From Acidobacteriota bacterium (GTDB lineage Bacteria; Acidobacteriota; HRBIN11), in the NCBI GenBank assembly GCA_030550225.1, contig JAUQPV010000001.1, positions 1-54,771 on the forward strand: a stretch of 54,771 bases of DNA, read 5' to 3'. Below the pieces are notes generated by a model. The model did no database searches, was not told the DNA's origin, and was given only the letters and a program-made list of their open reading frames with translations. Each line of letters begins with the position of its first letter. Within the stretch, counting starts at the first letter, position 1. This document shows positions 3,755-50,816 of this stretch, one piece after another. A program made the translations under genes and the position numbers.

Positions 3755-3823
3755 GTCCTGCGCTGCATTTTACCCGACACCCGGCACTTACCACCCGACA
3801 CCGAAGTCGAGGAGGTCGTCCTG

Positions 3824-20694: not shown

Positions 20695-20705
20695 GAGGTA
20701 CCTCG

Positions 20706-20864: not shown

Positions 20865-20867
20865 CCT

Positions 20868-29846: not shown

Positions 29847-29952
29847 GGCCATTCAGGAGATGGGCTCAGTGCCGGGATACCGACATCACCGAACGTCTGC
29901 CGTCTTTCCCGGACGGTCCGGCTCCCGGACTGCCGGACCGCCGGACTGCCGG

Positions 29953-30822
29953 ATGGCCGAACTGCCGAACTGGCGGTCGGCCCTGGAGGCCCTGGCCCGT
30001 CGGTTTCCTCGGCCCCAGACGCCCTGGGACGACCCCCTGGCCTTCGTGTATCGGTACGAAGACACCCGGGACCGGGCCGTCGTCGCCTACCTCGTGAGCT
30101 TTCTGGCCTTCGGCCACGTGCGGGCCATCGCCCGGGCCGTCGAGCCCCTCCTCGACCGACTCGGCCCCCGGCCGAGCCAGGCCCTCGTCGAGGCGTCTCC
30201 GACCGACCTGCGTCGGTGGGTCCACGGGTGGCGCTATCGCTTTATCCCGGCCGAAGCCCTCTACGGAATCCTGGCCTGGATTCGAGATCGGCTCGATCGA
30301 TGGGAGTCGCTGGAGGCTTACTTTCGGGCGCAGGTCGAGGGGTCCCCTTCGCTTCGGGATTTTGCCGAGACCCACGGTCAGGCCGGTCGCCAATTCTTTC
30401 AGCGCCGCGTCCCGGACGTCCCGCGGGTAAAGGCCCGGTTTCTCTTCCCGGTCCCACCCCGGAGTGCGTGCAAACGCCTGGCCTTGTTCATCCGGTGGAT
30501 GACCCGCCCGGCACCGCCCGACTTGGGTCTATGGGATTTCTGGCCTCGGGCCTGGGTATTCGTCCCAGTCGATACCCACCTGGCCTTCCTGGCTCGCCTG
30601 TGGGGCTGGGCCGACGGACGTGTCCCCGACTGGACCTTCATGGAGCAGGTCGCTTCCGTCTTGGCCGCCCTCTGTCCGGAAGACCCGCTTCGGTACGATT
30701 ACGCCATTACCCAGCTGGGGATCCGCCGTCTCTGTCATCGCCGGCCGGAGCTTCGGCGGTGTGGGGTATGTCCCATGCGGAGCGTTTGCCCCTATCCGGC
30801 TGGAAGCGATCCGTCTGGGTGA
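29953..30822 (+). CDS. DUF2400/TIGR02757-like protein (HhH-GPD-like fold with a C-terminal Cys cluster)
   Basis: Family recalled from ...FLFPVPPRSACKRLALFIRWMTR...VPVDTHLAFLARLWG... and a terminal CHRRPELRRCGVCPMRSVC. The start is uncertain because 29925-29975 is an octamer-repeat arm. Confidence 0.5.
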   Translation: MAELPNWRSALEALARRFPRPQTPWDDPLAFVYRYEDTRDRAVVAYLVSFLAFGHVRAIARAVEPLLDRLGPRPSQALVEASPTDLRRWVHGWRYRFIPAEALYGILAWIRDRLDRWESLEAYFRAQVEGSPSLRDFAETHGQAGRQFFQRRVPDVPRVKARFLFPVPPRSACKRLALFIRWMTRPAPPDLGLWDFWPRAWVFVPVDTHLAFLARLWGWADGRVPDWTFMEQVASVLAALCPEDPLRYDYAITQLGIRRLCHRRPELRRCGVCPMRSVCPYPAGSDPSG

Positions 30823-36055: not shown

Positions 36056-37117
36056 ATGGTCCGATTTCCCGCCATCGGCAAAATCAGTCCCGAATTTTTC
36101 GACCGACACGTCTTCCCCCGACTGGGCGCCCGGCGGCTCGAGGTCCTCGTCCCGCCCCGTCACGGCGTGGACGTCGGGGTCGTCCAGATCGGCCCAGACC
36201 TGGTCATGGCCATCACGACGGACCCCATCTATATCGTCCCCCAATATGGGTGGGAACGAGCGGCCTGGTTTGCCTGGCACATCCTGGCCAGCGACGTGAC
36301 GACCAGCGGATTCCCGCCCGCCTACGCCGCCTTCGACTTCAACTTGCCGATGGAAATGACCGAAGAGGCCTTTGAGCGCATCTGGGCCGTCATCGACAGG
36401 GAGAATCAGAAATACGGCGTGACCGTCATCGCTGGCCATACGGGGCGGTATCCCGGCGTGGACTACCCGATGGTCGGCGGGGCGACCTTCATCGCCGTCG
36501 GGCCCCGAGACCGTTATCTGACGGCTGACATGGCCCGCCCCGGCGACCTGGTCGTCGTCACGAAGGGGGCGGCCATCGAAGCCGTCGGGATTCTGAGTAA
36601 CACTTTCCCGAATTACGTTCGGGCCCATTTAGGCGATGCCGTCTTCCGAAAGGCGGCGGCCCTCTTTGATCAGATGAGCACCGTCGAGGACGCCCTGACG
36701 AGCGTCTCGGTCGGCGTCCGGGATGAAGGCGTCACGGCCATGCACGACGCCACTGAGTGCGGGGTCCTGGGGGGCGTCTGGGAAGTCGCCGAGGCCAGCG
36801 GTCAGGGGGTCGTCCTGTACAAGGACGAAATCCCCGTCTTGGAGGAGGTCCGGGCCGTCTGTGACCTCTTTGGGATCGACCCCTACACGGCCATCAGCGA
36901 GGGTACGCTGATCGTCACGGTCCGGCCGTCTCGGGCCGACGACCTCCTGAAGGTCCTCGGCGACCGGGGCATCCTGGCCCGGGTCGTCGGCGAAATTCGG
37001 CCGCCGGAGCAGGGCAAGGTCCTTATCGAAGGCGGTCAGGCTCGGCCCCTTGAACACCCGCGGGTCGACCCCTTCTGGGGTGCCATGCAGAGGGCTCTCG
37101 AGCAGGGCCTCACGTGA
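36056..37117 (+). CDS. AIR-synthase-related (PurM/HypE/ThiL superfamily) protein
   Basis: GVDVGVV...AITTDPIY...VIAGHTG...GDLVVVTKG fits the PurM-like N and C domains. GGAGG RBS. It is the last gene of the plus-strand kinase/regulator/cytochrome unit. It lacks the C-terminal PRIC motif of genuine HypE. Confidence 0.65.
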   Translation: MVRFPAIGKISPEFFDRHVFPRLGARRLEVLVPPRHGVDVGVVQIGPDLVMAITTDPIYIVPQYGWERAAWFAWHILASDVTTSGFPPAYAAFDFNLPMEMTEEAFERIWAVIDRENQKYGVTVIAGHTGRYPGVDYPMVGGATFIAVGPRDRYLTADMARPGDLVVVTKGAAIEAVGILSNTFPNYVRAHLGDAVFRKAAALFDQMSTVEDALTSVSVGVRDEGVTAMHDATECGVLGGVWEVAEASGQGVVLYKDEIPVLEEVRAVCDLFGIDPYTAISEGTLIVTVRPSRADDLLKVLGDRGILARVVGEIRPPEQGKVLIEGGQARPLEHPRVDPFWGAMQRALEQGLT

Positions 37118-37295
37118 CGTTCGGTGTTGGGTCTTGGGTGCTGGGTGTCCGGTATGAAAGACCCCAGACCACCGACCATAGACCTGTTTCGGAGGCCTGG
37201 TTCGCTTCGTCTCGAGACGGGGTACTCCAATGACTCCGTCAGGTCTATGGTCTGACGTCTTCTTTGGACCTAACACCCGACACCGAACACCGAAG
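37118..37295 (+). repeat. About 180-nt structured repeat element, copy 1 (G-rich heptamer arm, conserved core, C-rich arm)
   Basis: Arms are at 37118-37152 (cgttcGGTGTTGGGTCTTGGGTGCTGGGTGTCCgg) and 37266-37295 (ggacctaacacccgacaccgaacaccgaag). The core ggtatgaaagacc...caccgacc...ggttcgcttcgtc..gagacggg...gactccgt..ggtct..ggtctg is shared with the reverse complement of 43137-43300. The element fills the whole convergent gap 37118-37297. Confidence 0.8.
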
Positions 37296-37297
37296 AC

Positions 37298-40150
37298 CTA
37301 TTCGTGGCACTCCTGACAGACCTTCGGGTCGGGGCGGAGGCGGCCGGCCGCGTGACAGGTCCCGCAGGCCAGGTCTAAGTCCTCGGGACTGGCATGGAGG
37401 CGATGCGGAAACGTGCGTCCGTCGGCCAGCCGGAGGTCGCCCGGCGGTCCGAGGCCGTGACAGTCCTGACAGGCCCGGCGGACTTCCGGGGCGTGGTGGC
37501 AAGGGCCGCAGGCCAGGCCCGGTCGCAGGACCTCGGCGGGTTCCCGGACTTCGTGGGGCCGATGGCAGGTCTCACACGCCAGGGCCTGGACGGTGATGTG
37601 CTTCGCATGGGAAAAGGTATAGCCCCGATAGGGAGCTGTCTGAAGTTCGATCCCCTGGTGACAGTTCATGCAGGAAGACGTATAGGGGACCTGCACCCAA
37701 GCTGGGAGACGGACCGGACGGCCTCGGACGGTCTCTTGGACCTGCCGGTAACTCCAGGCCAACAGGGCCAAGGCATAGTCGGGATTGTGAATCCCGTTAG
37801 CCTGGCGGAGGAATTCAAGGTTCGCCTTTACGTCTTGCAAGACCGGGGCGGCGGGTGCCCAGCGGACGGCCGATGCATAGGCCGTCTCGACGTCCCGCAG
37901 GGCCCGTTCGAGTACGACCTTCCACTGGAGATAGATCTTCCGGTACCGGGTCCCGTGGCAGGCCATACAACTGACTTCGTTGGCCCGCCGGAGGCCACCC
38001 CGGGCCGCGTGTTCGAGGAAGTGACATCCCTCGCAGTCGACGCCCGTCAGGAACATCTTGCTGGGTCGGGGCGGAACGCCCTTCCCGCCGAGGCCGGCGT
38101 ACAGGTCCCGGGTGGGAGCGTGGCCGCTCAAGTGGCATCGCTCGCACGCCGTGGCGGCCGGCGTCAGGGGGAGACGACCATGCTGAATTTCCTGATGGCA
38201 GTCGGTGCACTCGACTTTATGTTCCGTCACGTGCTGATGGTGGAGGTAGGCTTCATCCCCGAACCGGGCCAGTCGTTGCGGCTCGTTGTGACAGGTCAGA
38301 CAGCGCTCCCGGGGGACGGCTCCCTCGCCCCGGATGCTCTTCTGATGGCACCACACGCACTCCATCCCGAAGCGCCGAACGTCGCCGTGGTCGAAGCGGA
38401 CGCCCTGGGCCTCGACGGGTCCGGAGGGCGGAATGTGGCAGAGCTCACATCGGGCGGGTCCGGTGCCCAAGCGTTGGTTCTTGAAGTGGCACAGGAAGCA
38501 CGTCGATTCGGTGACCGTGATGTGAAGGCCCTGGACGATCTGGGAGTGGCAGGACGTACAGCGGAGCCGCATCCCCCGCCGGAGTTCCAGAAGGTGGGGC
38601 GCATGGTCGAAGACGATGTCATGGAAGACTTCCTTTCCTTGAAGCAAACGCCGTTCGTGACACCGCAGGCAACTGGCATCTTCGACCTCGGCCCAGGGGT
38701 TCGGCCCGTAGGTCTGAGTGATGTACTGAGCGGCCATCGAGAGGGCCTCGTACTTCTTCCGGAATTCGGACGTGATCCCCGGAGGGATGTGGCAATCTAC
38801 GCAGGGGACGTTCCGATGGGTCGACGCCTTCCAGGACTGATAGTAGGGTTGCATGACGTGGCAAGAGCCGCAGAAGGCCGGCGTCGAGGTCACCTGCATC
38901 AACAAGAAGACCGTCAACAGGAGACCGCCCAGGCCGACCATCAACCAGAGGGCACCCCATCGGACGCTTCCCCGCTCGTCGGGGGGACCCTCCGGCGGCT
39001 TCTCGCCAGAAAGGCCGGCCCGTCGGATCTCCAAGAGGGCCACCGTCAGGAGGAGGTAAAACCAAAAGGCGATGAGGAGAAACCGTTGGGCCGTCCGATG
39101 ACCCCGCCAACGCTGGACCTCGCTCCGGATCTCACTGGCGATGGAACGGACCTTTCGGGTCTCGGCCTCGATATCCCCGACCTGCAGGCTGTGGACGACC
39201 GGCTGGACGCCGCTCAGGAAGGTCCGAGCCTCTTCCAGCCGCTCCTCCATCGCCCGGGTCGGGACGCCGACGGCCCGGGCCGCCTCGAGGGCCGTCTGGG
39301 CTTCTTGGAGGTCGGCGGTGGCCGTCCTCAGGAGGGTCTGGATCTCGGCGGCGACCTTCATGGGTCGTTGGCCGGTCTCATGGCACTTTCCGCAGACCTC
39401 CACGAGCCGTTCGGGGTTGACCCGGGTGGTCGCATGGTTGTCATGACAGGCCACGCAGGCGGGCAGGCCCCGGCTTAGAAAGGCCCGGGCGTGCGGGCTC
39501 TGGAGGAACATTTCCATGGACCGGGTATGGCACAACCCGCAGACTTCTGAGACTTCCCGAACGCTGGGCGGGGCGGCCCCATGCTTGCCATGGCAAGTCG
39601 CACAGTGAGGCGCCCGGGGATGGCCCGAGGCCAGCGCCTGGAAGTGAACGCTGGCGCGGTACTGGTCCACGACATCGGCCGATAGGCCGTACCGCTCCAT
39701 AAGCTCCTTTTGAGCGTGACACCGACCGCAGGTCTCGGCAACATTCTCTCGATAGACCCGGCTTCGGGGATCTTGGGCCGGTCGGATGTCATGGGTCCCG
39801 TGGCAGTCCGTACAGACGGCGACCCGGGTATCACCTCGGGCCAAGGCCTGCCCATGATACGAACTCTGATAATACAGGTACTGGTCAATAGGTATGTTGA
39901 AGGGCCGCATCCGCTCCGGGTCGCTGTGGCAGTCGGCGCAGAGCCGGGGGATTTGAGACCGCTCGGGCACGCCCCGGAAGTCTTTCCCGTGAGCGGCCTC
40001 CATCTCGAGCGGGCCCTCGACGCCGCCGTGGCAGGCCGTACAGGGCACGCCCTTACGGCTATGGGCATCTTCCGCAAAGCGAGCCTTCAATTCGCTGTGG
40101 CACGTCAGACATGTGGACGCCAGCATGAGGACGAAGACGGCCGCATTCAT
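37298..40150 (-). CDS. giant multihaem cytochrome c with 27 CxxCH: an N-terminal 9-haem domain, a TM hairpin, then a NapC/NirT/NrfH-like segment and further haems (18 CxxCH)
   Basis: The start MNAAVFVLMLASTCLTCH (ATG at 40150) lies just after the cytochrome b stop. The first 355 aa are paralogous to the 11-haem protein (shared blocks GDTRVA.C.DCH, DPRS.VY, VCGLCHT, SPHA.AF). Two TM helices map to about 38891-39085. Next comes TSTPAFCGSCHVMQPYYQSWKASTHRNVPCVDCHIPPG (NapC/NirT-like), then 16 more CxxCH up to the terminal CQECHE. Confidence 0.85.
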   Translation of the reverse strand: MNAAVFVLMLASTCLTCHSELKARFAEDAHSRKGVPCTACHGGVEGPLEMEAAHGKDFRGVPERSQIPRLCADCHSDPERMRPFNIPIDQYLYYQSSYHGQALARGDTRVAVCTDCHGTHDIRPAQDPRSRVYRENVAETCGRCHAQKELMERYGLSADVVDQYRASVHFQALASGHPRAPHCATCHGKHGAAPPSVREVSEVCGLCHTRSMEMFLQSPHARAFLSRGLPACVACHDNHATTRVNPERLVEVCGKCHETGQRPMKVAAEIQTLLRTATADLQEAQTALEAARAVGVPTRAMEERLEEARTFLSGVQPVVHSLQVGDIEAETRKVRSIASEIRSEVQRWRGHRTAQRFLLIAFWFYLLLTVALLEIRRAGLSGEKPPEGPPDERGSVRWGALWLMVGLGGLLLTVFLLMQVTSTPAFCGSCHVMQPYYQSWKASTHRNVPCVDCHIPPGITSEFRKKYEALSMAAQYITQTYGPNPWAEVEDASCLRCHERRLLQGKEVFHDIVFDHAPHLLELRRGMRLRCTSCHSQIVQGLHITVTESTCFLCHFKNQRLGTGPARCELCHIPPSGPVEAQGVRFDHGDVRRFGMECVWCHQKSIRGEGAVPRERCLTCHNEPQRLARFGDEAYLHHQHVTEHKVECTDCHQEIQHGRLPLTPAATACERCHLSGHAPTRDLYAGLGGKGVPPRPSKMFLTGVDCEGCHFLEHAARGGLRRANEVSCMACHGTRYRKIYLQWKVVLERALRDVETAYASAVRWAPAAPVLQDVKANLEFLRQANGIHNPDYALALLAWSYRQVQETVRGRPVRLPAWVQVPYTSSCMNCHQGIELQTAPYRGYTFSHAKHITVQALACETCHRPHEVREPAEVLRPGLACGPCHHAPEVRRACQDCHGLGPPGDLRLADGRTFPHRLHASPEDLDLACGTCHAAGRLRPDPKVCQECHE

Positions 40151-40161
40151 GCCGACCTCGT

Positions 40162-41136
40162 TCAATAATAACTTCCGACCCACGCCAGGGCGATATACCC
40201 CAGCGCCGCCATCAAGGCCCACCACCGGAGGGTTCCCCGCCGCCGATCGTCCAGCCAGGGCAAAAGGGTCCAAAAGGCCAGTAACGCCAGAAAACCCCAT
40301 CCCAGGACCCACCCCGGCGTCCGAGGTTCCAGCCACTGAAGAGGTCGAAAATACCAGGGTGCCCGGGTCACGGGTGGCGGATGCAGGACGTCGGCGACTT
40401 CTGGATGGAGAGGCGGGGCCAAGACGGCCAGGGTCGTCAGGCCGCCGACCCACAGCAGAAGGGCGCTTAGACCCCAGTGGACCCAATCCGGGTAGACCGG
40501 CCGACTCAGACTGGGCCGCCGGAGTCCGGACCGCAGGGAGACATACACATGAGTAAAGGTCAATGCGATGAAAAGCCCGGGCAGGGCCGAAACGTGCAGG
40601 AAATAAAAGCGCGTCAAGGTATCCTGCGTGACGTCGGTCCCGCCGACGAGGAAGGAAAAGAGGGCCCCGAGCCCCGGGAGTCGACGGATCTCTTCCAAGG
40701 CCCGAACCGTCGTCCAGAGGGCCGTCTGGCTCCAAGGCAGGAGGTGACCCGTCACGTCCGAGAGGACCAGCAGGACCAGAAGACCCGTCCCGACGAGCCA
40801 TTGACCCCGAAGGCGCAAGTAGTCCCGCTGGACTAAGATCCCCAGACCATGAAGAACGGCAAGCCCCATCAAGACATAGGCCCCCCAGTGATGGACCGAG
40901 TGGATGACCTCCCCCAAGAAGACCCGATAGCGGATGAGGTTCACGCTCTCGAAGGCCCGTTCGACCGTCGGCCGGTAGTAAAAAGCCAGCAAAGCCCCCG
41001 TGAAGGCCTGGACACCGAAGCCCAGCAGGAGGAGAAGACCCGGGAGGTGATGCCATCCGAAGGCCCACCGGGTCGTCCGCCACGAACGCGGTATCCAGCT
41101 CCGGAAATCGCCGCCTTTCCGCTGCTTGAAAGACAT
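40162..41136 (-). CDS. cytochrome b (bc/b6f-type), copy 2, divergent
   Basis: Bis-His haem ligand pairs VHHWGAYVLMGLAVLH and FLHVSALPGLFIALTFTH; GHLLPWSQ. The Qo-site PEWY position reads APWYFRP. Length 324 aa. Confidence 0.85.
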   Translation of the reverse strand: MSFKQRKGGDFRSWIPRSWRTTRWAFGWHHLPGLLLLLGFGVQAFTGALLAFYYRPTVERAFESVNLIRYRVFLGEVIHSVHHWGAYVLMGLAVLHGLGILVQRDYLRLRGQWLVGTGLLVLLVLSDVTGHLLPWSQTALWTTVRALEEIRRLPGLGALFSFLVGGTDVTQDTLTRFYFLHVSALPGLFIALTFTHVYVSLRSGLRRPSLSRPVYPDWVHWGLSALLLWVGGLTTLAVLAPPLHPEVADVLHPPPVTRAPWYFRPLQWLEPRTPGWVLGWGFLALLAFWTLLPWLDDRRRGTLRWWALMAALGYIALAWVGSYY

Positions 41137-41223
41137 CGACCCTACTCCATCACTTCGTCGTCACTCCGTCATTTCGTTCCTCCATCACTCCGTTACTTTG
41201 TCGTCAGCCCATCACCTCCTTCC

Positions 41224-41646
41224 CTAAAACCGGATGTATACCTGGCCCTGGACGACCTCAACCGCATATCGCGGGAGAGCGCTGGGCGGCGGACCCTGCA
41301 GGACGTTGCCGCTGAGGTCGAACACGCCCCCGTGGCAGGGGCACAGGATGACGTCCCGTTGGGGCGTCCAGCTCACGCCGCACCGCCGGTGGGTGCATAG
41401 GGCCGAAAAGGCCAGCCACTGGTGTTCATTCCGCCGGATCAGCAGGACGGGTCGGTCGGCGACGAAGACGACCCGACTGCTCCCCGGGGCCAACATGTCG
41501 GCCGGCCCGACCCGATAGCCTGAGGCGCTCGACCCGACATTCTCCCGGGGGGGCCGTAAGAACCGCCACAGGGCGTAAAGCCCGGAACCTACCCACAGCG
41601 CTCCCACCAGTCGAACCAGCCACTCCAGGAAGAGCCGCCGCCTCAT
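41224..41646 (-). CDS. Rieske [2Fe-2S] protein, copy 2
   Basis: CTHRRCGV...CPCHGGVFD cluster-binding boxes. N-terminal MRRRLFLEW anchor, Tat-like. The ATG overlaps the stop of the upstream 11-haem gene (ATGA at 41643-41646). Confidence 0.85.
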   Translation of the reverse strand: MRRRLFLEWLVRLVGALWVGSGLYALWRFLRPPRENVGSSASGYRVGPADMLAPGSSRVVFVADRPVLLIRRNEHQWLAFSALCTHRRCGVSWTPQRDVILCPCHGGVFDLSGNVLQGPPPSALPRYAVEVVQGQVYIRF

Positions 41647-43115
41647 GGCTTCAATCTCTTGTCCCGGGACCGGGCCTCGATCTGCCGGATCTTGAGGTAC
41701 AGGGCGATGACCAAGAGCGTGATCCACAGCGTGGCGAAAGCAAAGCCCTTCCGGCGGAAGTCAAATTCGGCCAAGGCCCGCTGACCTGCCGTTCGGGCTT
41801 GCTCGGCGGTCTGAACGGCCGGCTCGACGACCTTCTGGACCTCGGCGGGGTCCGACGTGTGGACGACCGTCCGGGCCTTCAAGTAGGCGTTGTGGACATC
41901 CCGGAGTTGAAACCAGGCGTCGGCCACGTCCATGCCCTTCTGTTCGGCGGCCGTCAGGAGGCGCCGGGCCTCCTCTTCCAGTATGACCAGACGTCGAATC
42001 GTTTCATACATCATACGGGCCACTTGGGTGCCCTTGTCGTCCATCGAGTGGCACTTTCGGCACATGAAGACAGGGGCCTCGGGCTGGAGCTGGTCGAGGG
42101 ACGTCGTCGGGACCTCGTGATTACCGTGGCAGGCTTCGCACTGCGGGAGGCCCTTCTTTTCGAAGGCGGCCGCGTGGGGACTCTTGCTGAAGTACTCGGC
42201 ATTCAGGGTATGACAGAGGCCGCACACGTGGGAGAGCGTCTGCACGCCAGGCGGCATGGCGCCGTGGTTGCCGTGGCAGTCGTTGCAGGCCGGGGCCCCC
42301 GTGTCGTGTTTCTCCAGGAGGGCCCGGCCGTGGGCCGTCGAAGCGTAGAGGTCGTATTGATTCGTCGGAATCCCGTAAGGCTTCATGTATGCAGGGTCGC
42401 TGTGGCACCGGGCGCACATGATGGGCACGTTGACGGCGTACACGCTGGACCGGGGGTCCTTCGGGGGATAGATGGTATGGGCCGTGTGACAGTCCGAACA
42501 GGTGGCGACCCGGGTGTCACCCTGCTGGAGCCGCTGACCGTGACGGCTCGTCCAATACTTCTCCAGTTGGTCCGTCGGGAGGGCCGGATTAAACTTCCGC
42601 ATGTAGGCAGGGTCGGCATGACATCGAGCGCACAAGAAGACCTCCCGGGTCGGGTAGGTCGGCGACTGGGGGTCCCGGCTGGAGCGAATCTCATGGACGT
42701 CGTGACAACTGACACAGGTCGCCACGTCGGCCTTTCCGTGCACGCTGGTCTCAAAGCGTTGGAACTGGATGGTATCGATCGAACTGGCCCACTGGGCCAT
42801 CCGGGATTCGTTCGCGTGGCAGGCGTTGCAGGTCTGCGTGATCTGAGCGCCCTTGGGAACGCCGATATACCCCTTCTTGGGGTCCATCGCCGCGTCCATA
42901 TCGGCCTGGGTCGGGTCGCCGCCGTGACAGCCGGCGCAGGAGATGCCTTTCTGGAAATGAACGTCATTGACATACTTCTGGGAAGGGGTGTCTTCCAAGA
43001 GCTCCCGATGACAGGTCCGACACTGGTCCTGCGTCTGCGCCTGCCCGGTTTGCAGGCCGCCGCCTAAGACCAACGCCAAGACCCCGACGATGACCCAAAT
43101 GCCAAAGCGCTGCAT
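41643..43115 (-). CDS. 11-CxxCH multihaem cytochrome c with a C-terminal TM anchor
   Basis: MQRFGIWVIVGVLALVLGGG signal peptide. Eleven CxxCH: CRTCH, CAGCH, CNACH, CVSCH, CARCH x2, CSDCH, CNDCH, CGLCH, CEACH, CRKCH. A coiled-coil-like segment is followed by FAFATLWITLLVIALYL. The ORF extension to 43274 runs through the repeat element. Confidence 0.85.
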   Translation of the reverse strand: MQRFGIWVIVGVLALVLGGGLQTGQAQTQDQCRTCHRELLEDTPSQKYVNDVHFQKGISCAGCHGGDPTQADMDAAMDPKKGYIGVPKGAQITQTCNACHANESRMAQWASSIDTIQFQRFETSVHGKADVATCVSCHDVHEIRSSRDPQSPTYPTREVFLCARCHADPAYMRKFNPALPTDQLEKYWTSRHGQRLQQGDTRVATCSDCHTAHTIYPPKDPRSSVYAVNVPIMCARCHSDPAYMKPYGIPTNQYDLYASTAHGRALLEKHDTGAPACNDCHGNHGAMPPGVQTLSHVCGLCHTLNAEYFSKSPHAAAFEKKGLPQCEACHGNHEVPTTSLDQLQPEAPVFMCRKCHSMDDKGTQVARMMYETIRRLVILEEEARRLLTAAEQKGMDVADAWFQLRDVHNAYLKARTVVHTSDPAEVQKVVEPAVQTAEQARTAGQRALAEFDFRRKGFAFATLWITLLVIALYLKIRQIEARSRDKRLKP

Positions 43116-43300
43116 GATTTCGACCCTTCGAGCAATCGGTGTTGGGGGCTGGGTGTTGGGTCCAAGGAGACTACAGACCCCAGACCGAACGGAGTCGTCG
43201 GAATAGCCCGTCTCAGGACGAAGCGAACCTGACCCCCGGAATAGGTCGGTGGTCAGTCGTCCGTGGTCTTTCATACCAAATACCTACCACCCGACATCTC
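43116..43300 (-). repeat. About 180-nt structured repeat element, copy 2 (inverted relative to copy 1)
   Basis: The reverse complement of 43137-43300 aligns with 37118-37295 over the arms and core (see copy 1). A left flank gatttcgacccttcgagcaatcggtg is shared with 50081-50118. Confidence 0.8.
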
Positions 43301-43386
43301 CATCCAGTATCGTGACGCCGTGATGAAGTCCACCCCAGGCCGTCGCCGGAGCGAACGGCCCGGGATCGGCGTCGTCACGACGCCTC

Positions 43387-44460
43387 CTATGACCGGAAGC
43401 CCCATAGCGTCATCGTAGCAATATAGACAAGCACGATCCATCCGATGAGATGAGCGATTTCATTCCGATACTTGCCGAGCCGCCCCTCCCAGAAGGGCAC
43501 CGTCATCCACAAGAGGCCGCCGAGCGTGAAAAACAAGACACCCACGAACTCCCCCTCCAGGAAGAAGACCTTCGCCGGCAGGATCTTCAGGGTCTGATAC
43601 ATAAACAGAAAGTACCACTCGGGCTTGATCCCTGGCGGCGCCGGCGCAAAGGGGTCGGCCTTCGGACCCAACTCCCACGGATAAAAGACGGCCAAAAAGG
43701 CCAGGACATTCAAAACGATCAGCCACAAGAGGAGGTCCCGGAGCAAGAAGTTCGGAAAGAAAGGCATCCGCCGCTTCTCCGACTCGGGTCGCCCGGCCCA
43801 GGACTCGGGTTCGGCGATGCCCTGCCGCTGGATGAACAGCAGATGGAGGGTCAGCAGGATGGTGAAGATGCCCGGCAGGAGCGCTACATGCAGGCCGAAA
43901 AAGCGGGCCAGGGTCGCCCCGCTGACCTCCTCACCGCCCCGGAGGATTCGGACTAATTCATGACCGATGGCCGGGACCGAGCCGACAATTTCGGTCCCGA
44001 CCCGTGTCGCAAAGAAAGCCAACTGGTTCCAGGGCAGGAGGTACCCCGTGAAGCCGAAAAACAGAGCCAGCACCAGGAGGAGAAAGCCGCTGACCCACGT
44101 GAGCTCCCGGGGCTTTCGATAGGCTCGCGTGAAGTACACGCTAAACATGTGAATGAAGACCGTCAGGATCATCAGGTTGGCGCCCCAACTGTGAATGGAC
44201 CGGATCAGCCATCCGAACCGGACCTGGGACATGATGAAGCGTACGCTCTCGTAGGATGCGTCCTCGCCGACCCGGTAGTACATCAAGAGCAGGATGCCCG
44301 TCGTCACTTGGACCAAAAAAAGGAAGAGGCTGACGCCACCAAAATAGTACCAAATGGTGTGCCGGTGCATGGGCACGTACTTGTGGGACATGAATTCGAC
44401 GAGGGCCTGGAGTTGATATCGCTCGTCCAGCCACCGATAGATGCGCCGCCACATAGTCAC
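43387..44460 (-). CDS. cytochrome b (bc/b6f-type, fused N- and C-terminal parts), copy 1
   Basis: [20 protein letters not shown] and [19 protein letters not shown] haem ligand pairs; GYLLPWNQ; canonical Qo motif PEWYFLF. Length 357 aa. Confidence 0.9.
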
Positions 44461-44475
44461 TACCCCACCGCTACA

Positions 44476-44721
<246 letters not shown>

Positions 44722-44724
44722 CCA

Positions 44725-45174
44725 TTAGGCCTCCCGCGTGACGTATACGTCGTCCCCCCGAACGACGACCTTCAGGGGCTCCAGGGGCCGCGGCGGGGGA
44801 CCGGCGATGTTGATACCGTTTAGGTCAAAACGCCCGTTGTGACAGGCGCACCAGATCAACTTCCAGTCCGGCCGGTACTGGACGATGCAGGCCAGATGCG
44901 TACAGGTCGCTGTAAAGGCCTTGAAGTCCCCAAACTCCGTCCGAATGAGGAGTACAGGCTCGTTCCCAAACCGGACGACCCGCCCCGAGTTGGGCTCAAA
45001 GTCGTCGACCTTCCCAACCTTGACGGCCGACAGCCGCGCCTCGGGGACCCGGGGCGGGATGATGTACTGAATAATGGGATATAAGACGGACGAAATCCAA
45101 CCGACGATACCCAGGCCGAGAAGCCAGTCGATGAAGCTTCGTCGGGTCACACCCCTCATCGGCCACCCCCTCAA
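44725..45174 (-). CDS. Rieske [2Fe-2S] protein, copy 1 (Tat signal)
   Basis: Twin-arginine TRRSFIDWLLGLG; cluster boxes CTHLACIV...CACHNGRFD. Confidence 0.88.
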   Translation of the reverse strand: MRGWPMRGVTRRSFIDWLLGLGIVGWISSVLYPIIQYIIPPRVPEARLSAVKVGKVDDFEPNSGRVVRFGNEPVLLIRTEFGDFKAFTATCTHLACIVQYRPDWKLIWCACHNGRFDLNGINIAGPPPRPLEPLKVVVRGDDVYVTREA

Positions 45175-45346
45175 ATATACCGCCGAGCGAATACGGAATA
45201 GGGTCCCGGGTGCCAGGTCCAGAGAAAAGGGGACTACAGATTACAAACGATGGACCCCACACCTGTAGGGTCTCAGGGACGAGGCCACCTGGTCCAACGA
45301 GACAAGGCCCCGGGTCCCTATCCTCCCGGGGCCGGCACCTGAAGTG

Positions 45347-45718
45347 TCACTTCTTACCCTTCAGGGAGAACAGCCACTCGGCCAGGGTCTTGAGTTCCGC
45401 CTCCGTCCCCTTAAAGAGGACCTTATGCTTTTTGCCGTCCTTTTCGACCTTCTTCAGGAGGTAGTCCTGAATCCACTGGGCGCTCTCGACCTTCGAACCG
45501 ACGTCCGACAGGTCCGTCACCTTCGCTTCTGCTTCTTCTCCCTCAGCGGCCTTTTTCGCCTCGATGCCCTCGGCCTTGATGCTGTGGCACATCGTGCACT
45601 TGTACTTGGTGAAGAGCTCCTTGCCCGAGGCGGCCTTCTCCTGGGCCGTCGCCGCTCCCGTCAGGCCGACGACCAGGACGGCCGCCCATGCCATCCATGC
45701 CCACGATGCGATCCGCAT
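45347..45718 (-). CDS. monohaem class I cytochrome c (123 aa), tandem copy A
   Basis: Signal peptide MRIASWAWMAWAAVLVVGLTGAATAQ and a single CTMCH. The mature part differs from copy B at one residue by my reading (QDYLL versus QDWLL). Confidence 0.85.
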   Translation of the reverse strand: MRIASWAWMAWAAVLVVGLTGAATAQEKAASGKELFTKYKCTMCHSIKAEGIEAKKAAEGEEAEAKVTDLSDVGSKVESAQWIQDYLLKKVEKDGKKHKVLFKGTEAELKTLAEWLFSLKGKK

Positions 45719-45849
45719 AAGTGAACCTCCCTTTGCTCTATATCATTTTTAAGGAATCTCTCAGACCCCCAGGAGTCATCCCGGCATCCTCCTCGCGGGC
45801 CGGACATGCCCTGAAAACGGGTGGAGCTGGGACCCGGGGACCTGAAGCG

Positions 45850-46221
45850 TCACTTCTTACCCTTCAGGGAGAACAGCCACTCGGCCAGGGTCTTGAGTTC
45901 CGCCTCCGTCCCCTTGAAGAGGACCTTATGCTTTTTGCCGTCCTTTTCGACCTTCTTCAGGAGCCAATCCTGAATCCACTGGGCGCTCTCGACCTTCGAA
46001 CCGACGTCCGACAGGTCCGTCACCTTCGCTTCTGCTTCCTCTCCTTCCGCGGCCTTCTTGGCTTCGATGCCCTCGGCCTTGATGCTGTGGCACATCGTGC
46101 ACTTGTACTTGGTGAAGAGTTCCTTGCCTGAAGCGGCCTTCTCCTGGGCCGTCGCCACACCGGCCAGGCCGACGACCAGGAGAGCCGCCCATAACATCCA
46201 TAACCATGATGCCATTCGCAT
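45850..46221 (-). CDS. monohaem class I cytochrome c (123 aa), tandem copy B
   Basis: MRMASWLWMLWAALLVVGLAGVATAQ signal peptide, CTMCH, 503-bp register with copy A. The ORF extension to 46509 runs through the repeat arms. Confidence 0.85.
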   Translation of the reverse strand: MRMASWLWMLWAALLVVGLAGVATAQEKAASGKELFTKYKCTMCHSIKAEGIEAKKAAEGEEAEAKVTDLSDVGSKVESAQWIQDWLLKKVEKDGKKHKVLFKGTEAELKTLAEWLFSLKGKK

Positions 46222-46538: not shown

Positions 46539-48869
46539 CTAAAACGTGTAGCTGACCTTCATGTAGAACACGGTGACGTTATAGCCCTTCAGTTGAGTCC
46601 CCATAAGGGTCGCCTCGTTGAACGCACCGGCCGCCGTGACCGGGATATACGCGAAGCCGACGGTACTCAGGTCGTCGTCGTAGCGGAACTTCTCCCAAAG
46701 GGCACCGAGCGTGTACGTCAGACCCCGCGTCACGCTATATCGGAGGCTGGCGTTCAAGACGTGGAACCGGACGTCATCGACCTGGTCGAAACTCACCGGC
46801 TCAAAGGGATTCGCATCGTTGGCCGATGTCCCGACAGGGCTCACGAAGGCGACGGCCCCATCGGACTTCGAGTACGTATAGGACACGTCCGCCGTCAGCT
46901 TCCGCGGCTTCAGCAGAACGGCCTGCAGGCCCCCGCCCAGGCTGTGGAGCTTGTCCTTCTCGTCGGACGTCCAGTTGCTGAGCGAATCTAGACCGGTTTC
47001 CCGCACATAGGGATCGCCGACACCGTTCCGAGCCCACTGCCGCACCTTCTGGCTGTTTTTGTACCCTTCGAAGCTATAGAAGGCAAACAGGCTGACTTGC
47101 TCCGTCAGCGCATAGTCAGCGTCGACGGAATAGACGGTCCGACGGTCGTTCAAGAGTCCAAAGGGGGAATCCCGGAAATTGTCCTTCCCGTAGACGACCG
47201 ATCCCGAGAGAGTCAGCTTGTCCGTAGGAGCCACCGAGACCATCCACAAGACGCTGTCCCGGTCCCGATTCGCCTGGTCGTATTTCCGCAGGAAGGGGAG
47301 TTGAGGCGGGTTCCTGACCTCCTCCTCACCCAGATGAGAGGCGATGAAGGGGATCATAAAGTCGTATTCGCCCCGCCGCCGGGAACGTTCGTAGGCGGCC
47401 CGGAGAGTCAACCAGGACAGGGGTGTCGTGTCGAGGGCAACCTTGAAGATGTTGTCGTCCTGCTCGGCGACCTCCCGGAAGACCCGGTCGGTCCGGATAA
47501 ACCGGTAGCCAAGCGTGAGCGTCGTCGATTTCCAGACGTCCAGACCCAGGTCTACCGAAAAGCTATTCTTCTTAAAGCCGGTCGGGATGTTGGCCGCCGG
47601 TTCGGGCTCCCAGACGGCGTCCACCCAGACGCGGCCCGGGAAGTGAATCTGTTCCGACTTGTTGTCCCAATGGTAGAAGTTGTACTTGAGTTTTAGGCGG
47701 GTGAATCGCAGGGGCTTGGACGTCAGCAACAGCTGAAGCTGGGTAACGTCAACCTTCAGGTCCGCCTGCTGGATGGGCAGACTGGCCTTATCCCAGGCGT
47801 CGAAGGGGACAGGCTCGCCGGGGACCCTGCTCGGGGCACCCTTGCGGATGGCCCGGTTGGTCGTGTAAGGGACTAAGGGGTCGTTCTGGGTCAGGCGCCC
47901 GAAGGAGGCCGTGGCCGAAAGCCGACTCTCGAGGGGGAGGTCCATCAGGACACCGCTGAATGAGAAGTAGTGCGCCCGGTTGTTGGGATACAGGTCGATT
48001 AGACCCGAGGCCGGCCCGGCCAGATAGGACTGGCGATAAGCCGTCGCCGTCGTGCTGTCCGTCGCCCGGTAGGGGTTCGCCCACGTCAGGGTGTCGATGT
48101 TGTTCGCGAAGTCCGAGAAATAGTAGCTGACGTTCACGAAGAGGGGCTTGCGGCCGTATTCGGCGGCGAGACGCACCTGGGTCGTGTCGTAGTCGATAGG
48201 CTCCGGGATTTCGACCACGTTGCCGAAGCCAAAGTTACCACTAAAGGGTCGTGTGCCCTCCCGTTTCTCGAAGCGGGTCTCCGCCGTCAGCCGGAAGGGG
48301 TCCCAGGCGACGACCTTCAGGTCGGCCCGGAAGGTCTTCCGAAAGAGGGCTTCATCGAAGGTCGCGGCCCCGGGTAGGTAGCCCAGGATGCGGCTGACCA
48401 GGTCCGTCGGCGACCGGGACGACTGCAAGTCACTTTGAAGCCGCGGACTCAACTGAAGATTACCAGTCCCGATGCCCGAAAACAGAGACTGGGCGTCAAA
48501 GGCAAACCGGTGGGGGATCTTGTCATAGGTCAGATCCAGCTTGAACCATCCGAACCGCTGACTGGTCAGTTGGAGGAGTTGGTCGTCCCGGGCGATATTC
48601 TTCGCCAGAGCCTCCAAGATGTAGGCACCCCGGCGGTACCGGACCATTACGTCGCCCCACGAGCCTGGCGGAAAGGCTCGGTACTCGGTGAACTTCGCCG
48701 AGTCCCGGAGATGGCTCACGGCGGCGGCTGTAACTTCCGTCTGGACCGTCACCGTGGGCTTGACTTCTTCTTGGAACTTCTCCTTCTCTTGGGCCCACCC
48801 ATAGGACACGATGGACGATAAGAGCAGGATTGTCCCCCCCATGACAAGAATTCTCGCACGTTCCGACAT
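46539..48869 (-). CDS. MtrB/PioB-family outer-membrane beta-barrel (decahaem-associated porin)
   Basis: Signal peptide. N-terminal KFTEYRAF...LDLTYDKIPHRF resembles the MtrB/PioB signature (KFGEY..., YDxIPH). The body is long, with alternating beta-strand character, and ends in an aromatic residue (...YMKVSYTF). It lies immediately downstream of a decahaem gene (12-nt gap). GGAGGGAGG RBS. Confidence 0.8.
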   Translation of the reverse strand: MSERARILVMGGTILLLSSIVSYGWAQEKEKFQEEVKPTVTVQTEVTAAAVSHLRDSAKFTEYRAFPPGSWGDVMVRYRRGAYILEALAKNIARDDQLLQLTSQRFGWFKLDLTYDKIPHRFAFDAQSLFSGIGTGNLQLSPRLQSDLQSSRSPTDLVSRILGYLPGAATFDEALFRKTFRADLKVVAWDPFRLTAETRFEKREGTRPFSGNFGFGNVVEIPEPIDYDTTQVRLAAEYGRKPLFVNVSYYFSDFANNIDTLTWANPYRATDSTTATAYRQSYLAGPASGLIDLYPNNRAHYFSFSGVLMDLPLESRLSATASFGRLTQNDPLVPYTTNRAIRKGAPSRVPGEPVPFDAWDKASLPIQQADLKVDVTQLQLLLTSKPLRFTRLKLKYNFYHWDNKSEQIHFPGRVWVDAVWEPEPAANIPTGFKKNSFSVDLGLDVWKSTTLTLGYRFIRTDRVFREVAEQDDNIFKVALDTTPLSWLTLRAAYERSRRRGEYDFMIPFIASHLGEEEVRNPPQLPFLRKYDQANRDRDSVLWMVSVAPTDKLTLSGSVVYGKDNFRDSPFGLLNDRRTVYSVDADYALTEQVSLFAFYSFEGYKNSQKVRQWARNGVGDPYVRETGLDSLSNWTSDEKDKLHSLGGGLQAVLLKPRKLTADVSYTYSKSDGAVAFVSPVGTSANDANPFEPVSFDQVDDVRFHVLNASLRYSVTRGLTYTLGALWEKFRYDDDLSTVGFAYIPVTAAGAFNEATLMGTQLKGYNVTVFYMKVSYTF

Positions 48870-48881: not shown

Positions 48882-49868
48882 TCAGCGGGCTAATATTTTG
48901 CCGGATGGATGGTTGCTTCCGTGGATTTGGGAATGGCAGTTCAGACAGTTCCGGTAGAAGGCTCGGTTGTTCAACGCTTGATACGCCGAGAGTCCCTGAG
49001 CGGCCTGCTGAGGATTCAAAGCATACAGCCTACCCGGGTGGCCGCTATTGGAATGACAACTCTGGCACAGGAAGGGCGTCTTCGACACCAAAAGCTTGGT
49101 ATGGGACGATCCATGCGGTGTGTGGCAAGTCCCACAGCTTTCCGTCGCCGGGGGGTGCTCCCACAGGAAGGGACCCCGCTTTTCCGCATGACACTCGTAG
49201 CACTTTTCATTGATCGAATTGGCGGCGATTAGCTTGTCGGTCACCGTACCGTGGGGGTTGTGACAGCTCGTGCACTCCATCCGGCCTTCCCGAACGGGAT
49301 GGTGAGAATTCTTGAGAATCTCGGCCTTCACCTGCTGATGACACGTCGTGCAGGTCTCGACCTCCGTCGGCTTGGCCAGATTCTTCGGATAGCCGCTATG
49401 GACGCTGTGGCAGTTCGTGCAGGCCAAATTCCGACTTTCGTGAGGACTCCCATGCCAGAGGGCGACCTTCGTCGTCATCGTCTCATGACAGCTCAGACAG
49501 ACAGCGTTCCGCTCCTCGACCGAGAGCTTCGACTTCGGACCCAGGACCCGAATCGAGACGTTGGCCGATCCCGTCGGAGCGGCGGAGCTGTCCCCATTCC
49601 CGGGGACTTCGCCGCCTTGCTCCTTCACGTGCGCCGCCCCGGGGCCGTGGCAGGTCTCGCACCCGAATTTGGCCTCCGGCGTGCGCTTGTCTTCCTTCAC
49701 GCCGTGGGTGGTCTGGATGTAACTCTGGTAGTACGGTGCGTGACACTCGCGACACGCCTGCGTGCCCACGTAGCCCTTCGCTGGGGGAGCTTCCTGGGCT
49801 GCCGGAACCGACGCCGTGAGGAGGAACCCGACCAGACATCCGATGAGGATGAAAATCTTTGGCTTCAT
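48882..49868 (-). CDS. MtrA/DmsE/PioA/MtoA-family periplasmic decahaem cytochrome c
   Basis: Signal peptide MKPKIFILIGCLVGFLLTASVPAAQ. Exactly 10 CxxCH in about 330 aa: CRECH, CETCH, CLSCH, CTNCH, CTTCH, CTSCH, CYECH, CGTCH, CQSCH, CLNCH. GGAGGGGG lies before the ATG at 49868; an alternative ATG is at 49883. Confidence 0.85.
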   Translation of the reverse strand: MKPKIFILIGCLVGFLLTASVPAAQEAPPAKGYVGTQACRECHAPYYQSYIQTTHGVKEDKRTPEAKFGCETCHGPGAAHVKEQGGEVPGNGDSSAAPTGSANVSIRVLGPKSKLSVEERNAVCLSCHETMTTKVALWHGSPHESRNLACTNCHSVHSGYPKNLAKPTEVETCTTCHQQVKAEILKNSHHPVREGRMECTSCHNPHGTVTDKLIAANSINEKCYECHAEKRGPFLWEHPPATESCGTCHTPHGSSHTKLLVSKTPFLCQSCHSNSGHPGRLYALNPQQAAQGLSAYQALNNRAFYRNCLNCHSQIHGSNHPSGKILAR

Positions 49869-50109
49869 CACCGCCCCCTCCATTCCCTAAAATCGGATGG
49901 TCTCTGTATCCTACAATTTCCGTTCCAAACCCCCTGAAAGTCGGGGTGCCGGGCCGTAGGAAGCGCATCGGGTGGAAATAGGCAGGTCGGCCGATCATGG
50001 CTCATAGCGGATGGCTTAGAGTCCTATGAGCTATGACCTATGAGTGCATCCGAGCCGTTCGGTTCGTGAAAACCCGCATGGATTCGGCTTTTCCGACCCT
50101 TCGAAAAAT

Positions 50110-50200
50110 CGGTGCTCGGTGCTGGGTGTTGGGTGTTGGGTGTTGGGTTCTTGAAAAAGGGACCTAACACCTAACACCGAGCACCCAGCACCCAACACCC
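50110..50200. repeat. Tight hairpin with GGGTGTT-heptamer arms; the G-rich arm is a canonical G-quadruplex motif
   Basis: Left arm 50110-50150 is cGGTGCTCGGTGCTGGGTGTTGGGTGTTGGGTGTTGGGTTC. Right arm 50161-50200 is gacctaacacctaacaccgagcacccagcacccaacaccc. The loop is 10 nt. GGGTGTTGGGTGTTGGGTGTTGGG lies at about 50124-50147. Confidence 0.85.
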
Positions 50201-50471
50201 ATTCTGTCTGAAAAATCGTGCTTCCCGGCCCATGGAAAAGGCCGTCCCGACGCCATTCTCCCGAACCGAACGGCCTTACTAAGCTATCTGCCTCCGTCCC
50301 TTGCCTGCGCGAAATCACCCATAGGTGGGTGATTTCACCCGCGGTCCTACGGAAGGGGCGAGCCAATTGCTTTGTTGTGATCGGAGTGGACGCCACGGGC
50401 CGACGGAGACGTCGGCCCGCAGGCCGGAGGCCTGTGCCACCGCTTTATTGCGACAGACTTACTGCAAAACG

Positions 50472-50804: not shown

Positions 50805-50816
50805 TTGGTTCCTCAG

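Follow-up and report, generated by a model that had tools for sequence, protein, structure and literature searches.

Introduction

Enterobacterial repetitive intergenic consensus elements (ERIC; also known as intergenic repeat units, or IRU) and the Correia elements of Neisseria (also known as Neisseria miniature insertion sequences, or NEMIS) are imperfect palindromes of 100-160 nt that lie in transcribed spacers. Correia elements number in the hundreds; they end in defined inverted repeats and have a TA target duplication. Other described bacterial repeats include repetitive extragenic palindromic sequences (REP), REP doublets forming hairpins (REPIN), and bacterial interspersed mosaic elements (BIME), which are short non-coding hairpin repeats in spacers, many of them between cistrons or at 3' gene ends (PMC3116915, PMC3733652). 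There are also published heptamer repeats, such as GGGNATC of Xanthomonas and Nostoc (PMC4692102) and TAACTGA of Beggiatoaceae (PMC4679880). Here we describe an element that resembles several of these. It occurs twice in a stretch of 54,771 nt (contig JAUQPV010000001.1 of GenBank assembly GCA_030550225.1), which we call the window. The window is from an Acidobacteriota bacterium in HRBIN11, the GTDB name for a class of that phylum (PMC11778308).

The two copies are in opposite orientations, on either side of four genes for respiratory proteins: a 27-haem cytochrome, a second cytochrome b, a second Rieske protein, and an 11-haem cytochrome (27-haem, cytochrome b-2, Rieske-2, and 11-haem for short). 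An earlier note, made from the sequence alone, had proposed that these genes are a cassette that was inserted or duplicated via a MITE-like element (miniature inverted-repeat transposable element), or else a segment that can invert. We think it probable instead that the copies are paralogous members of a small non-coding palindromic intergenic repeat, similar to REP, MITE, or ERIC elements, which is specific to the lineage of bacterium HR11, an Acidobacteriota from hot springs.

Results

The two inverted copies are homologous

The copies comprise these parts:

37118-37298, + strand: copy 1, complete element; it fills the whole 180-nt spacer from the stop of the AIR-synthase-related (AIRS-like) gene to the stop of 27-haem, and its orientation is set by GGTATGAAAGACC reading left to right
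37123-37150, + strand: copy 1, outer left arm; four heptamers GGTGTTG GGTCTTG GGTGCTG GGTGTCC (period 7 in Tandem Repeats Finder, TRF); pairs with 37266-37298
37151-37270, + strand: copy 1, core (the module in common with copy 2); matches covariance model R1 with 140 bits
37160-37187, + strand: copy 1, inner left arm; four GACCNNN heptamers
37188-37239, + strand: copy 1, non-periodic centre of ~52 nt, including the CGTCTCGAGACG stem-loop
37242-37262, + strand: copy 1, inner right arm; NNNGGTC
37266-37298, + strand: copy 1, outer right arm, C-rich (CAACACC-type); GGACCTA ACACCCG ACACCGA ACACCGA AGACC
43137-43306, - strand: copy 2, inverted relative to copy 1 and sense to the cytochrome operon; between cytochrome b-1 and 11-haem
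43159-43277, - strand: copy 2, core (inner heptamer arms plus centre); matches R1 with 125 bits, gapless against the core of copy 1
43137-43163, - strand: copy 2, intact outer arm, proximal to 11-haem; GGACCCAACACCCAGCCCCCAACACCG in the operon sense; TRF array at 43138-43161
43278-43306, - strand: copy 2, degenerate outer arm, promoter-proximal; TGGATGGAGATGTCGGGTGGTAGGTATTT; pairs poorly with 43137-43163 in the sense strand

The similarity of the two inverted stretches, which the earlier note had described, is clear. Between 37118-37298 and the reverse complement of 43137-43300, 157 nt align with 78.3% identity and one 1-nt gap. When the two entire spacers are aligned locally (37118-37298 and the reverse complement of 43116-43386), the score is 139, as compared to 17.0 ± 2.3 for 1,000 shuffles (maximum 32). 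With real sequence as the background (392 other windows of this DNA, both strands), the highest score was 41. The copies also form the longest inverted repeat in the window (arms at 37136-37264 and 43164-43292; 129 nt, 78% complementary). We found every shared block that the note had listed, with "caccgacc" shifted by one heptamer between the copies.

Could this similarity have arisen by chance between low-complexity, GC-rich heptamer arrays that are not homologous? The classes of heptamers in the arms do recur in many spacers (at 3770, 6094, and 50107 in the window and at 2905-2936 in HR11), and they yield partial matches by themselves. But the non-periodic 55-nt centre also aligns without gaps at ~78% identity, with identical blocks of 13 nt (at 37199-37211, the longest exact match between the copies) and 8 nt, and real sequence as the background gives far lower scores. 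So the identity exceeds the low-complexity, GC-rich expectation against which the note had asked that it be checked. We consider chance similarity refuted; its likelihood is virtually nil.

The element is nested. Outer inverted arrays of GGTGTTG-type heptamers enclose inverted arrays of GACCNNN heptamers with the opposite polarity, which in turn enclose a unique centre of ~55 nt with its own short stem-loop. The lag-7 autocorrelation is 0.60 in both of the arm regions versus 0.19 in the centre, so the centre is non-periodic. In a MAFFT alignment, the core of copy 1 and the reverse-complemented core of copy 2 have no gaps, and by our own count on the alignment, the centre is about as similar between the copies as the arms are. 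Copy 1 contains a perfect 13-bp stem (GACCATAGACCTG / CAGGTCTATGGTC), and the final base of its outer right arm overlaps the stop codon of 27-haem (37298-37300, - strand).

The two copies differ in how well they fold. Copy 1 is predicted to form one long hairpin with a minimum free energy of -90.2 kcal/mol (z = -6.5; z = -6.0 for the opposite strand). Folding of copy 2 is weak (z = -0.9 in the operon sense and -2.6 in the antisense) because its promoter-proximal outer arm is degenerate. The note's statement that each copy is a long hairpin is thus correct for copy 1 and only partly so for copy 2, in which one arm has decayed.

The two copies have separate histories

We found relatives of this locus via the 90%-identity cluster of the 11-haem protein. 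Look-ups of exact proteins matched Logan assemblies of several sequencing runs, from the same organism; these include contigs L005 and L086. The other loci that we refer to by label are L094, which is bacterium HR11 (GCA_002898535.1); L092 and L093, from a strain whose 11-haem protein is 98% identical; L096-L099, which are JGI and ENA contigs; and L006, which is the Acidobacteria metagenome-assembled genome SKYB104. Proteins from HR11 are 91-96% identical to those of the window, with 80% identity at fourfold-degenerate sites. The cytochrome b of SKYB104 is 92% identical to the window's.

First, HR11 has an ortholog of copy 1. The locus is collinear in HR11 (Rieske-1, cytochrome b-1, 11-haem, Rieske-2, cytochrome b-2, 27-haem, and then the convergent AIRS gene), and a copy that is 92.4% identical to copy 1 lies at the junction of 27-haem and AIRS (L094 16135-16319; E = 1e-34 in nhmmer, 120 bits with covariance model R1). 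There are three indels between the two sequences, one of which is two heptamer units (14 nt) that are extra in HR11 on one inner arm. As judged from these sequences, this shows that copy 1 predates the split from HR11.

Second, copy 2 is missing from every relative that we examined. The spacer between cytochrome b-1 and 11-haem is just 25 nt in HR11 and 30 nt in L097-L099. It is longer in SKYB104 (105 nt) and in L096 (251 nt), with unrelated sequence. In L092/L093, the spacer is 162 nt and contains a short hairpin with arms only, GGCGTTAGGTGCTGGGTTC-TTGAAAAG-GGACCCAACACCCAACGCC, and no core. So the presence of copy 2 is polymorphic, and these alignments show it only in this strain's allele of the spacer.

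A similar hairpin with arms only ("form A") is found elsewhere in the window:

50107-50203, strand not assigned: form A; GGTGTTG-type arms, loop GGGTTCTTGAAAAAGGGACC, no core; upstream of the MtrA-like gene

Its arms are 42 nt and 83% matched, and it folds with z = -9.3. The loop GGGTTCTTGAAAAGGGACC of the arms-only hairpin in L092/L093 recurs in the window at 50145-50163. Because the loop recurs in two such hairpins, the arms-only form is canonical, rather than the product of a random deletion.

Across 41100-45015, the identity of the window to L092 is a mosaic, with blocks at 100% alternating with blocks at 89-96%, and copy 2 lies in a diverged block. This suggests frequent homologous recombination among co-occurring strains. 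The allele with copy 2 may have been brought in by recombination, and not by a very recent insertion. This would account both for the restriction of copy 2 to one strain and for the decay already seen in it.

Since the histories of the copies are separate, their inverted orientation and the four genes between them are incidental. Two randomly oriented copies would be inverted half of the time, so the orientation carries no meaning.

Heptamer hairpins are common across the lineage

Arrays with a period of 7 or 8 nt occur 4.2 times per 10 kb in the window and 2.8-5.6 times per 10 kb in HR11 and L096-L098, as compared to 0-1.2 in other lineages, including GC-rich ones. About half of the spacers in the window show periodicity at lag 7 or lag 8. 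At least eight inverted pairs of arrays form long hairpins, with unit classes ATTGCGA, TTCGGCAG, TACGAGA, and GGTGTTG. Array-bearing spacers include 4482-4588, 17053-17262, 20701-20865, 29909-29976, 44472-44725, 50107-50203, and 50814-50975, among others, and CCGGACTG is a further unit class. As most spacers above 80 nt in the operon carry such elements, the position of copy 2 is unremarkable.

The spacer between Rieske-1 and cytochrome b-1 (44461-44724) is an example. The window has a 264-nt hairpin there, its arms being of the TACGAGA/ATGCGAG type (z = -6.2); in L092 (292-434) the spacer is a 143-nt GGTGTTG-type hairpin; and in L094 (8870-8907) it is 38 nt. So different classes of repeats occupy one site in close relatives.

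Hairpins with GACC-type arms also occur on their own with other centres (L096 398-503 and SKYB104, L006 270-350). The weak matches to the model (L094 2909-2968, L006 270-350, and L096 398-503 and 10086-10195) are all to other heptamer-arm hairpins or arrays, whose centres differ.

Other types of repeats are present as well. A module of ~57 nt with TCGAAGGGTCGGAAAAGC occurs at 44543-44599 and 50052-50108 and partially at 43118-43132. It adjoins, or lies inside, hairpin elements of the operon. Its copies share two exact 18-mers (0.11 expected by chance), the ribosome-binding region of 11-haem resembles its start, and among the loci that we searched, it is limited to this organism. REP-like palindromes of ~26 nt (GGACGCCGGCATNACTGCCGGCGTYC) form clusters of two or three at 4625-4715 in the window and at 11990-12140 in L094. 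In HR11, this family widens the spacer between Rieske-2 and cytochrome b-2 to 381 nt, versus 87 nt in the window.

Some arrays could form other structures. (GGGTGTT)4 at 50118-50148 fits a G-quadruplex motif, with four G3 tracts and 4-nt loops (compare PMC4692102), and each G-rich arm of the two copies contains three G3 tracts. Judging from these motifs, hairpin and quadruplex folding could compete.

Overall, inverted arrays of 7- or 8-nt units crowd the spacers of this thermophilic lineage of Acidobacteriota, and they differ between strains whose neighboring proteins are ~98% identical. The lineage is a natural system for studying the origin, nesting, and turnover of palindromic repeats. There is also a practical aspect: the repeats break short-read assemblies, as in the Logan contigs, and they mislead gene callers (11-haem was called 53 codons too long; see below).

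The four genes were not delivered by the copies

The genes at the locus are:

37298-43115, - strand: the bracketed four-gene block, from Pfam, gene calls in L005/L086, and counts of CXXCH motifs
37298-40150, - strand: 27-haem (27 CXXCH motifs)
40162-41136, - strand: cytochrome b-2
41224-41646, - strand: Rieske-2
41643-43115, - strand: 11-haem (11 CXXCH motifs)
43387-44460, - strand: cytochrome b-1; with Rieske-1 and 11-haem, part of a triplet that is conserved across phyla
44725-45174, - strand: Rieske-1
36056-37117, + strand: AIRS gene, convergent on the operon; its stop abuts copy 1

The minus strand carries, in this order, an MtrA-like gene (48882-49883), an MtrB/PioB-like gene (46539-48869), two genes for small c-type cytochromes, Rieske-1, cytochrome b-1, copy 2, 11-haem, Rieske-2, cytochrome b-2, 27-haem, and copy 1. 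The spacer with copy 2 runs from the stop of cytochrome b-1 (43387) to the start of 11-haem (43115). Pfam and the gene calls thus bear out the geometry in the earlier note (an inverted pair around 27-haem, cytochrome b-2, Rieske-2, and 11-haem), and copy 2 does lie inside the first triplet of Rieske, cytochrome b, and cytochrome c genes.

We then asked whether the four genes could have arrived together, in the manner of a composite transposon, between flanking MITE-like elements. The region is variable: Rieske-2, cytochrome b-2, and 27-haem are missing downstream of 11-haem in most genomes and in L096-L099. But several pieces of evidence place the boundaries of the variable part away from the copies.

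First, the bracketed block is not one unit. We retrieved 80 loci with cytochrome b-1 from Acidobacteriota, Kryptonia, Ignavibacteria, Bacteroidota, Zixibacteria, and other groups. All have a Rieske gene upstream and a homolog of 11-haem (37-55% identity) directly downstream. Because 11-haem directly follows cytochrome b-1 in ~80 genomes from several phyla, it belongs to triplet 1, and the block that the copies bracket cuts across the operon. The lineage-specific part is Rieske-2, cytochrome b-2, and 27-haem. It begins after 11-haem, not at copy 2, and at that junction, Rieske-2 overlaps the stop of 11-haem by 4 nt and the element is absent.

Second, HR11 has all four genes but not copy 2, and the strain with a 98% identical 11-haem protein has the arms-only hairpin at the site of copy 2.

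Third, L096 has a deletion: of Rieske-2, only the initial ~30 codons remain, and the sequence resumes beyond the AIRS gene. The end points of this deletion are unrelated to the element.

Fourth, the two triplets are just 35-38% identical in amino acids. They are old paralogs and not a recent duplication.

We therefore reject a composite transposon or mobile cassette, because the boundaries in relatives are not at the flanking elements. For the four-gene block we regard it as refuted, and we give it very little credence. The comparison of related genomes that the note had suggested does show a variable locus, but HR11 has the block without copy 2, and the deletion in L096 ends away from the element. 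The extra module of Rieske, cytochrome b, and 27-haem is not a repeat-flanked mobile or invertible cassette, and annotation and evolutionary accounts should not treat it as one.

The variability downstream of 11-haem is seen among relatives whose 11-haem proteins are at least 90% identical (L096 3861-4080; L097 11470-11840). In L097-L099, the genes there are instead a DUF3179 protein, a CRP-family regulator, and mercury-resistance genes.

We also considered integron attC sites and rejected them. Two of the heptamers, ACCTAAC and GTTGGGT, are compatible with the loose consensus RYYYAAC / GTTRRRY, but the copies are inverted, the genes are conserved members of an operon, and there is no integrase among the window's open reading frames (ORFs) that we scanned.

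The block does not appear to invert

Another possibility is that the copies are recombination sites and that the 5.9-kb cytochrome block flips as a switch. Inverted repeats of ~130-160 nt around a block of genes would fit this, and contigs from several samples break inside copy 1. Nevertheless, a single orientation is seen in all of the contigs that span copy 2 or its site. Contigs L005, L086, L092, and L093, which are from four further samples, match the window, and so does HR11, in which there is just one copy. Also, RecA-type recombination is generally held to need ~25 nt of identity, and the longest identity between the copies is 13 nt. Flipping would part 11-haem from its conserved operon partners.

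In addition, an invertible segment of the Hin, Gin, or Fim type would have a recombinase gene nearby. With Pfam, we found no recombinase, invertase, tyrosine-recombinase, or transposase domain in 30 ORFs from the window (a few small ORFs were unchecked), nor among the neighbors in the gene tables of the syntenic L001 and L094. Between 33.9 and 49.9 kb, the Pfam hits in ORFs are to cytochromes, Rieske, MtrAB-like, and AIRS-like proteins only.

The contig breaks do not point to inversion either. In at least four samples, Logan contigs all end at 37201, and the abutting contig begins at 37179. A crossover within the shared 13-mer would instead give ends at 37211 and 37199. In an assembly graph with k = 31, the observed ends imply that the 37-mer CCGACCATAGACCTGTTTCGGAGGCCTGGTTCGCTTC (37172-37208) occurs in a second context with different flanks. 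Repeats do break these contigs, as the other end of the abutting contig (L086) is 33 nt into D1, a 300-nt repeat that is described below. The break within copy 1 hints at a third, closer paralog elsewhere in the genome. Alternatively, it could reflect polymorphism of array length in the population. (A 28-mer from the suspected third copy had no matches in IMG/VR.) Given the orientation of the contigs, HR11, and the short identity, inversion is largely refuted, and the remaining chance that the block flips is very slim.

The sequence of the element is probably under little constraint

Copy 1 in the window is 92.4% identical to that of HR11, while 89-91% of fourfold-degenerate sites are identical in 27-haem and AIRS, the genes on either side. 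Since copy 1 diverges at about the neutral rate and its centre is no better kept than its arms, its sequence seems to be under little constraint.

This bears on another explanation, that the element is a dedicated structured RNA (a cis-regulatory leader, a 3' untranslated region element, or a small RNA) with control over the cytochrome operons and with a sequence and fold under selection. Several observations fit. The spacers that hold the two copies are transcribed and belong to clusters of respiratory genes. The site of copy 1 has not changed since the split from HR11, and copy 1 folds far better than its shuffles. In the three sequences, pairing is maintained, with standard pairs in 95.8% of cells versus 33-51% when the partner is slid, and two pairs show compensatory changes. 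But with three sequences, which are too few, the covariation falls short of significance, as 56 of 500 shuffles do as well. Also, the fold is largely lost in copy 2, which is dispensable in every relative examined, and in relatives these spacers are empty or contain unrelated hairpins. At gathering thresholds, the only Rfam match in the window is a transfer-messenger RNA (tmRNA), and at E ≤ 10, both copies have sub-threshold chance matches only. With no Rfam family, near-neutral divergence, and a centre that is not especially conserved, we consider a dedicated RNA improbable.

If the hairpins of the palindromic repeat do shape the ends of mRNAs or relative expression within cytochrome operons, then gain and loss of hairpins between strains would be a cheap way to retune the stoichiometry of respiration.

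A reading frame in the element and the start of 11-haem

The GGTATGAAAGACC ATG opens an ORF of 33 codons in copy 1 (MKDPRPPTIDLFRRPGSLRLETGYSNDSVRSMV), and the equivalent frame is open in copy 2, where it runs into the 11-haem gene. Might the element encode a small protein? The frame is open in both copies, and by our own count, several of the codon differences between them are synonymous. Automated calls extend 11-haem to 543 amino acids from this ATG. But copy 1 of HR11 lacks the ATG (it has GGTA-GAAAG) and has a 1-nt deletion in the frame, which is why we rejected the ORF as a gene. Substitutions between copies 1 and 2 at codon positions 1, 2, and 3 number 6, 6, and 9, which is not a coding pattern, and a Shine-Dalgarno sequence is absent. 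Also, the conserved start of 11-haem is the ATG at 43115 (MQRFGIW, with a signal peptide), which aligns with the start in SKYB104. A protein-coding role is hardly tenable.

The calls that begin at the GGTATGAAAGACC ATG, in L086 and in cluster member P0132 (543 amino acids), add 53 codons to 11-haem (window 43116-43274).

Other features of the window

Several respiratory modules come together in the region 33916-54738. It encodes an outer-membrane conduit similar to MtrA/MtrB(PioB), two modules of Rieske and cytochrome b whose multihaem cytochromes have 11 and 27 haems, a NiFe hydrogenase, a sigma-54 two-component pair, and a cytochrome with 13 haems that is fused to a b561-like domain. It looks like an extracellular-electron-transfer cluster of a hot-spring Acidobacteriota. 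Within it, 45334-45633 and 45837-46136 are a 503-nt tandem duplication (300 nt at 95% identity; repeat D1) that gives two cytochrome c genes of 123 amino acids. This gene is single-copy in HR11, L096, and L097. Elsewhere in the window are a cytochrome P460 gene (14479-14970) and the tmRNA gene (27320-27672; 180 bits), whose tag peptide is ANTDLALAA.

Discussion

How a palindromic repeat could give rise to this pattern

The copies are part of a lineage-wide population of tandem arrays of 7- or 8-nt units, usually in inverted pairs, with fast turnover between strains. In our reading, the ~120-nt core behaves like a discrete module that is seated in the loop of an arms-only hairpin. It probably spread by gene conversion or recombination between copies of the repeat, or by hairpin-directed transposition, and slippage would shift the lengths of the arrays. 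As the copies lie in transcribed spacers, their RNA stem-loops may act at 3' ends or as intercistronic structures for stability or processing, like those of REP, ERIC, and Correia elements. We infer mobility from the pattern of presence and absence and from the nesting of the core. The MITE-like nature proposed in the earlier note is plausible, and the element is indeed repeated, hairpin-forming, and intergenic; delivery of a cassette and inversion through the copies are not supported.

Several results weigh against a palindromic repeat of this kind. Some concern its abundance. With nhmmer and covariance model R1, the 54.8-kb window has just two copies of the centre, and the ~308 kb of loci that we searched have three, the third being in HR11 (of which ~21 kb was covered). 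The pattern GGTTCGCTTCGTCNNGAGACGGG had no matches in the GTDB species representatives and none in IMG/VR. (The HR11 copy contains the 23-nt pattern, yet it was not matched, so HR11 and the source genome are evidently outside of GTDB's representative collection.) In JGI metagenomes, GGTTCGCTTCGTCNNGAGACG had five matches, all of them chance matches inside unrelated coding sequence. The hint of a third copy comes entirely from the positions of contig breaks, and array-length polymorphism could break contigs in the same way. Others concern mobility. At 78% identity, neither copy is a recent donor of the other. We could define no target-site duplication from filled and empty sites (the window versus L092, SKYB104, and HR11), as the flanking sequences have diverged too far and the boundaries (GAAAG / CTTTC) can be placed in more than one way. 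Among the ORFs of the window that were scanned with Pfam, there is no transposase or REP-associated tyrosine transposase (RAYT) gene.

The remainder concern the transcript. We expect by analogy that transcripts would form stem-loops, where the convergent genes end for copy 1 and intercistronically for copy 2, which plausibly affect 3'-end formation or RNA stability, but neither strand has a run of T after the full hairpin, so this is not a canonical intrinsic terminator. A scan for terminator-like sites found 13, with 7.3 ± 3.0 expected, which is not an enrichment. The sole such site in copy 1 (37237-37257 plus TCTTCTTT) is missing from copy 2 and from HR11.

A more specific idea, which we doubt, is that the core (the GACCNNN arms plus the 55-nt centre) is a mobile module of miniature size whose specific target for insertion is the tetraloop-like tip TTGAAAAG of heptamer-arm hairpins that already exist. 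If this were true, then a hairpin-directed mechanism that has not been described, based on single-strand transposition or on templated gene conversion, would operate in HR11-like Acidobacteriota. It would account for the assembly, nesting, and rapid exchange of inverted heptamer arrays in most spacers, and it could affect how operon RNA is processed in a thermophile.

Comparison to known repeats

In the literature, we found no description of such repeats in Acidobacteria or in HR11. The element is closest to REP/REPIN/BIME, ERIC, and Correia-type repeats, with arms like those of short tandemly repeated repetitive (STRR) sequences. It matches no Rfam family and lacks the U-tract of an intrinsic terminator.

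Besides their position in spacers, REP, REPIN, and BIME repeats share with this element a modular or mosaic build, presence that differs between close strains, and selfish or near-neutral evolution. In contrast to REP and REPIN, the arms here are tandem 7-nt units instead of a single palindrome of 20-40 nt, and copies 1 and 2 lack the GTAG or CGTC tag. No RAYT was seen within the 55 kb examined, and the copy number of the present centre looks low. The GGACGCCGGCATNACTGCCGGCGTYC palindromes at 4625-4715 are more REP-like than copies 1 and 2 are.

MITEs are likewise small and non-coding, with inverted ends and insertion polymorphism between strains. Terminal inverted repeats are present here, in that the outer arms of copy 1 (37123-37150 and 37266-37298) pair, with one arm of copy 2 being degenerate. 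However, no target-site duplication or cognate transposase was identified, and the ends are variable tandem arrays rather than fixed transposase-binding ends.

The heptamer repeats, including the STRR sequences of cyanobacteria, GGGNATC, and TAACTGA, have 7-nt units that are enriched in spacers and near the ends of genes, and the number of units varies. The element is similar in its TRF arrays, its lag-7 autocorrelation of 0.60 in the arms, the 4.2 arrays per 10 kb, and the two extra units in HR11. Some heptamer arrays fit a G-quadruplex motif, as (GGGTGTT)4 does here. The published families are direct arrays, whereas this lineage has several classes of units, mostly in inverted pairs that are sometimes nested or placed around a unique centre.

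ERIC and Correia elements are similar in size (~120-180 nt), in forming one long imperfect hairpin, in their transcribed intergenic sites, and in a likely effect of the RNA stem-loop. They have no sequence similarity to our element and are from a different phylum, and in the loci searched we saw neither the defined terminal repeats and TA duplication of Correia elements nor their hundreds of copies. Like this element, with its arms-only and arms-plus-core versions, ERIC has short and long forms that differ by an internal block.

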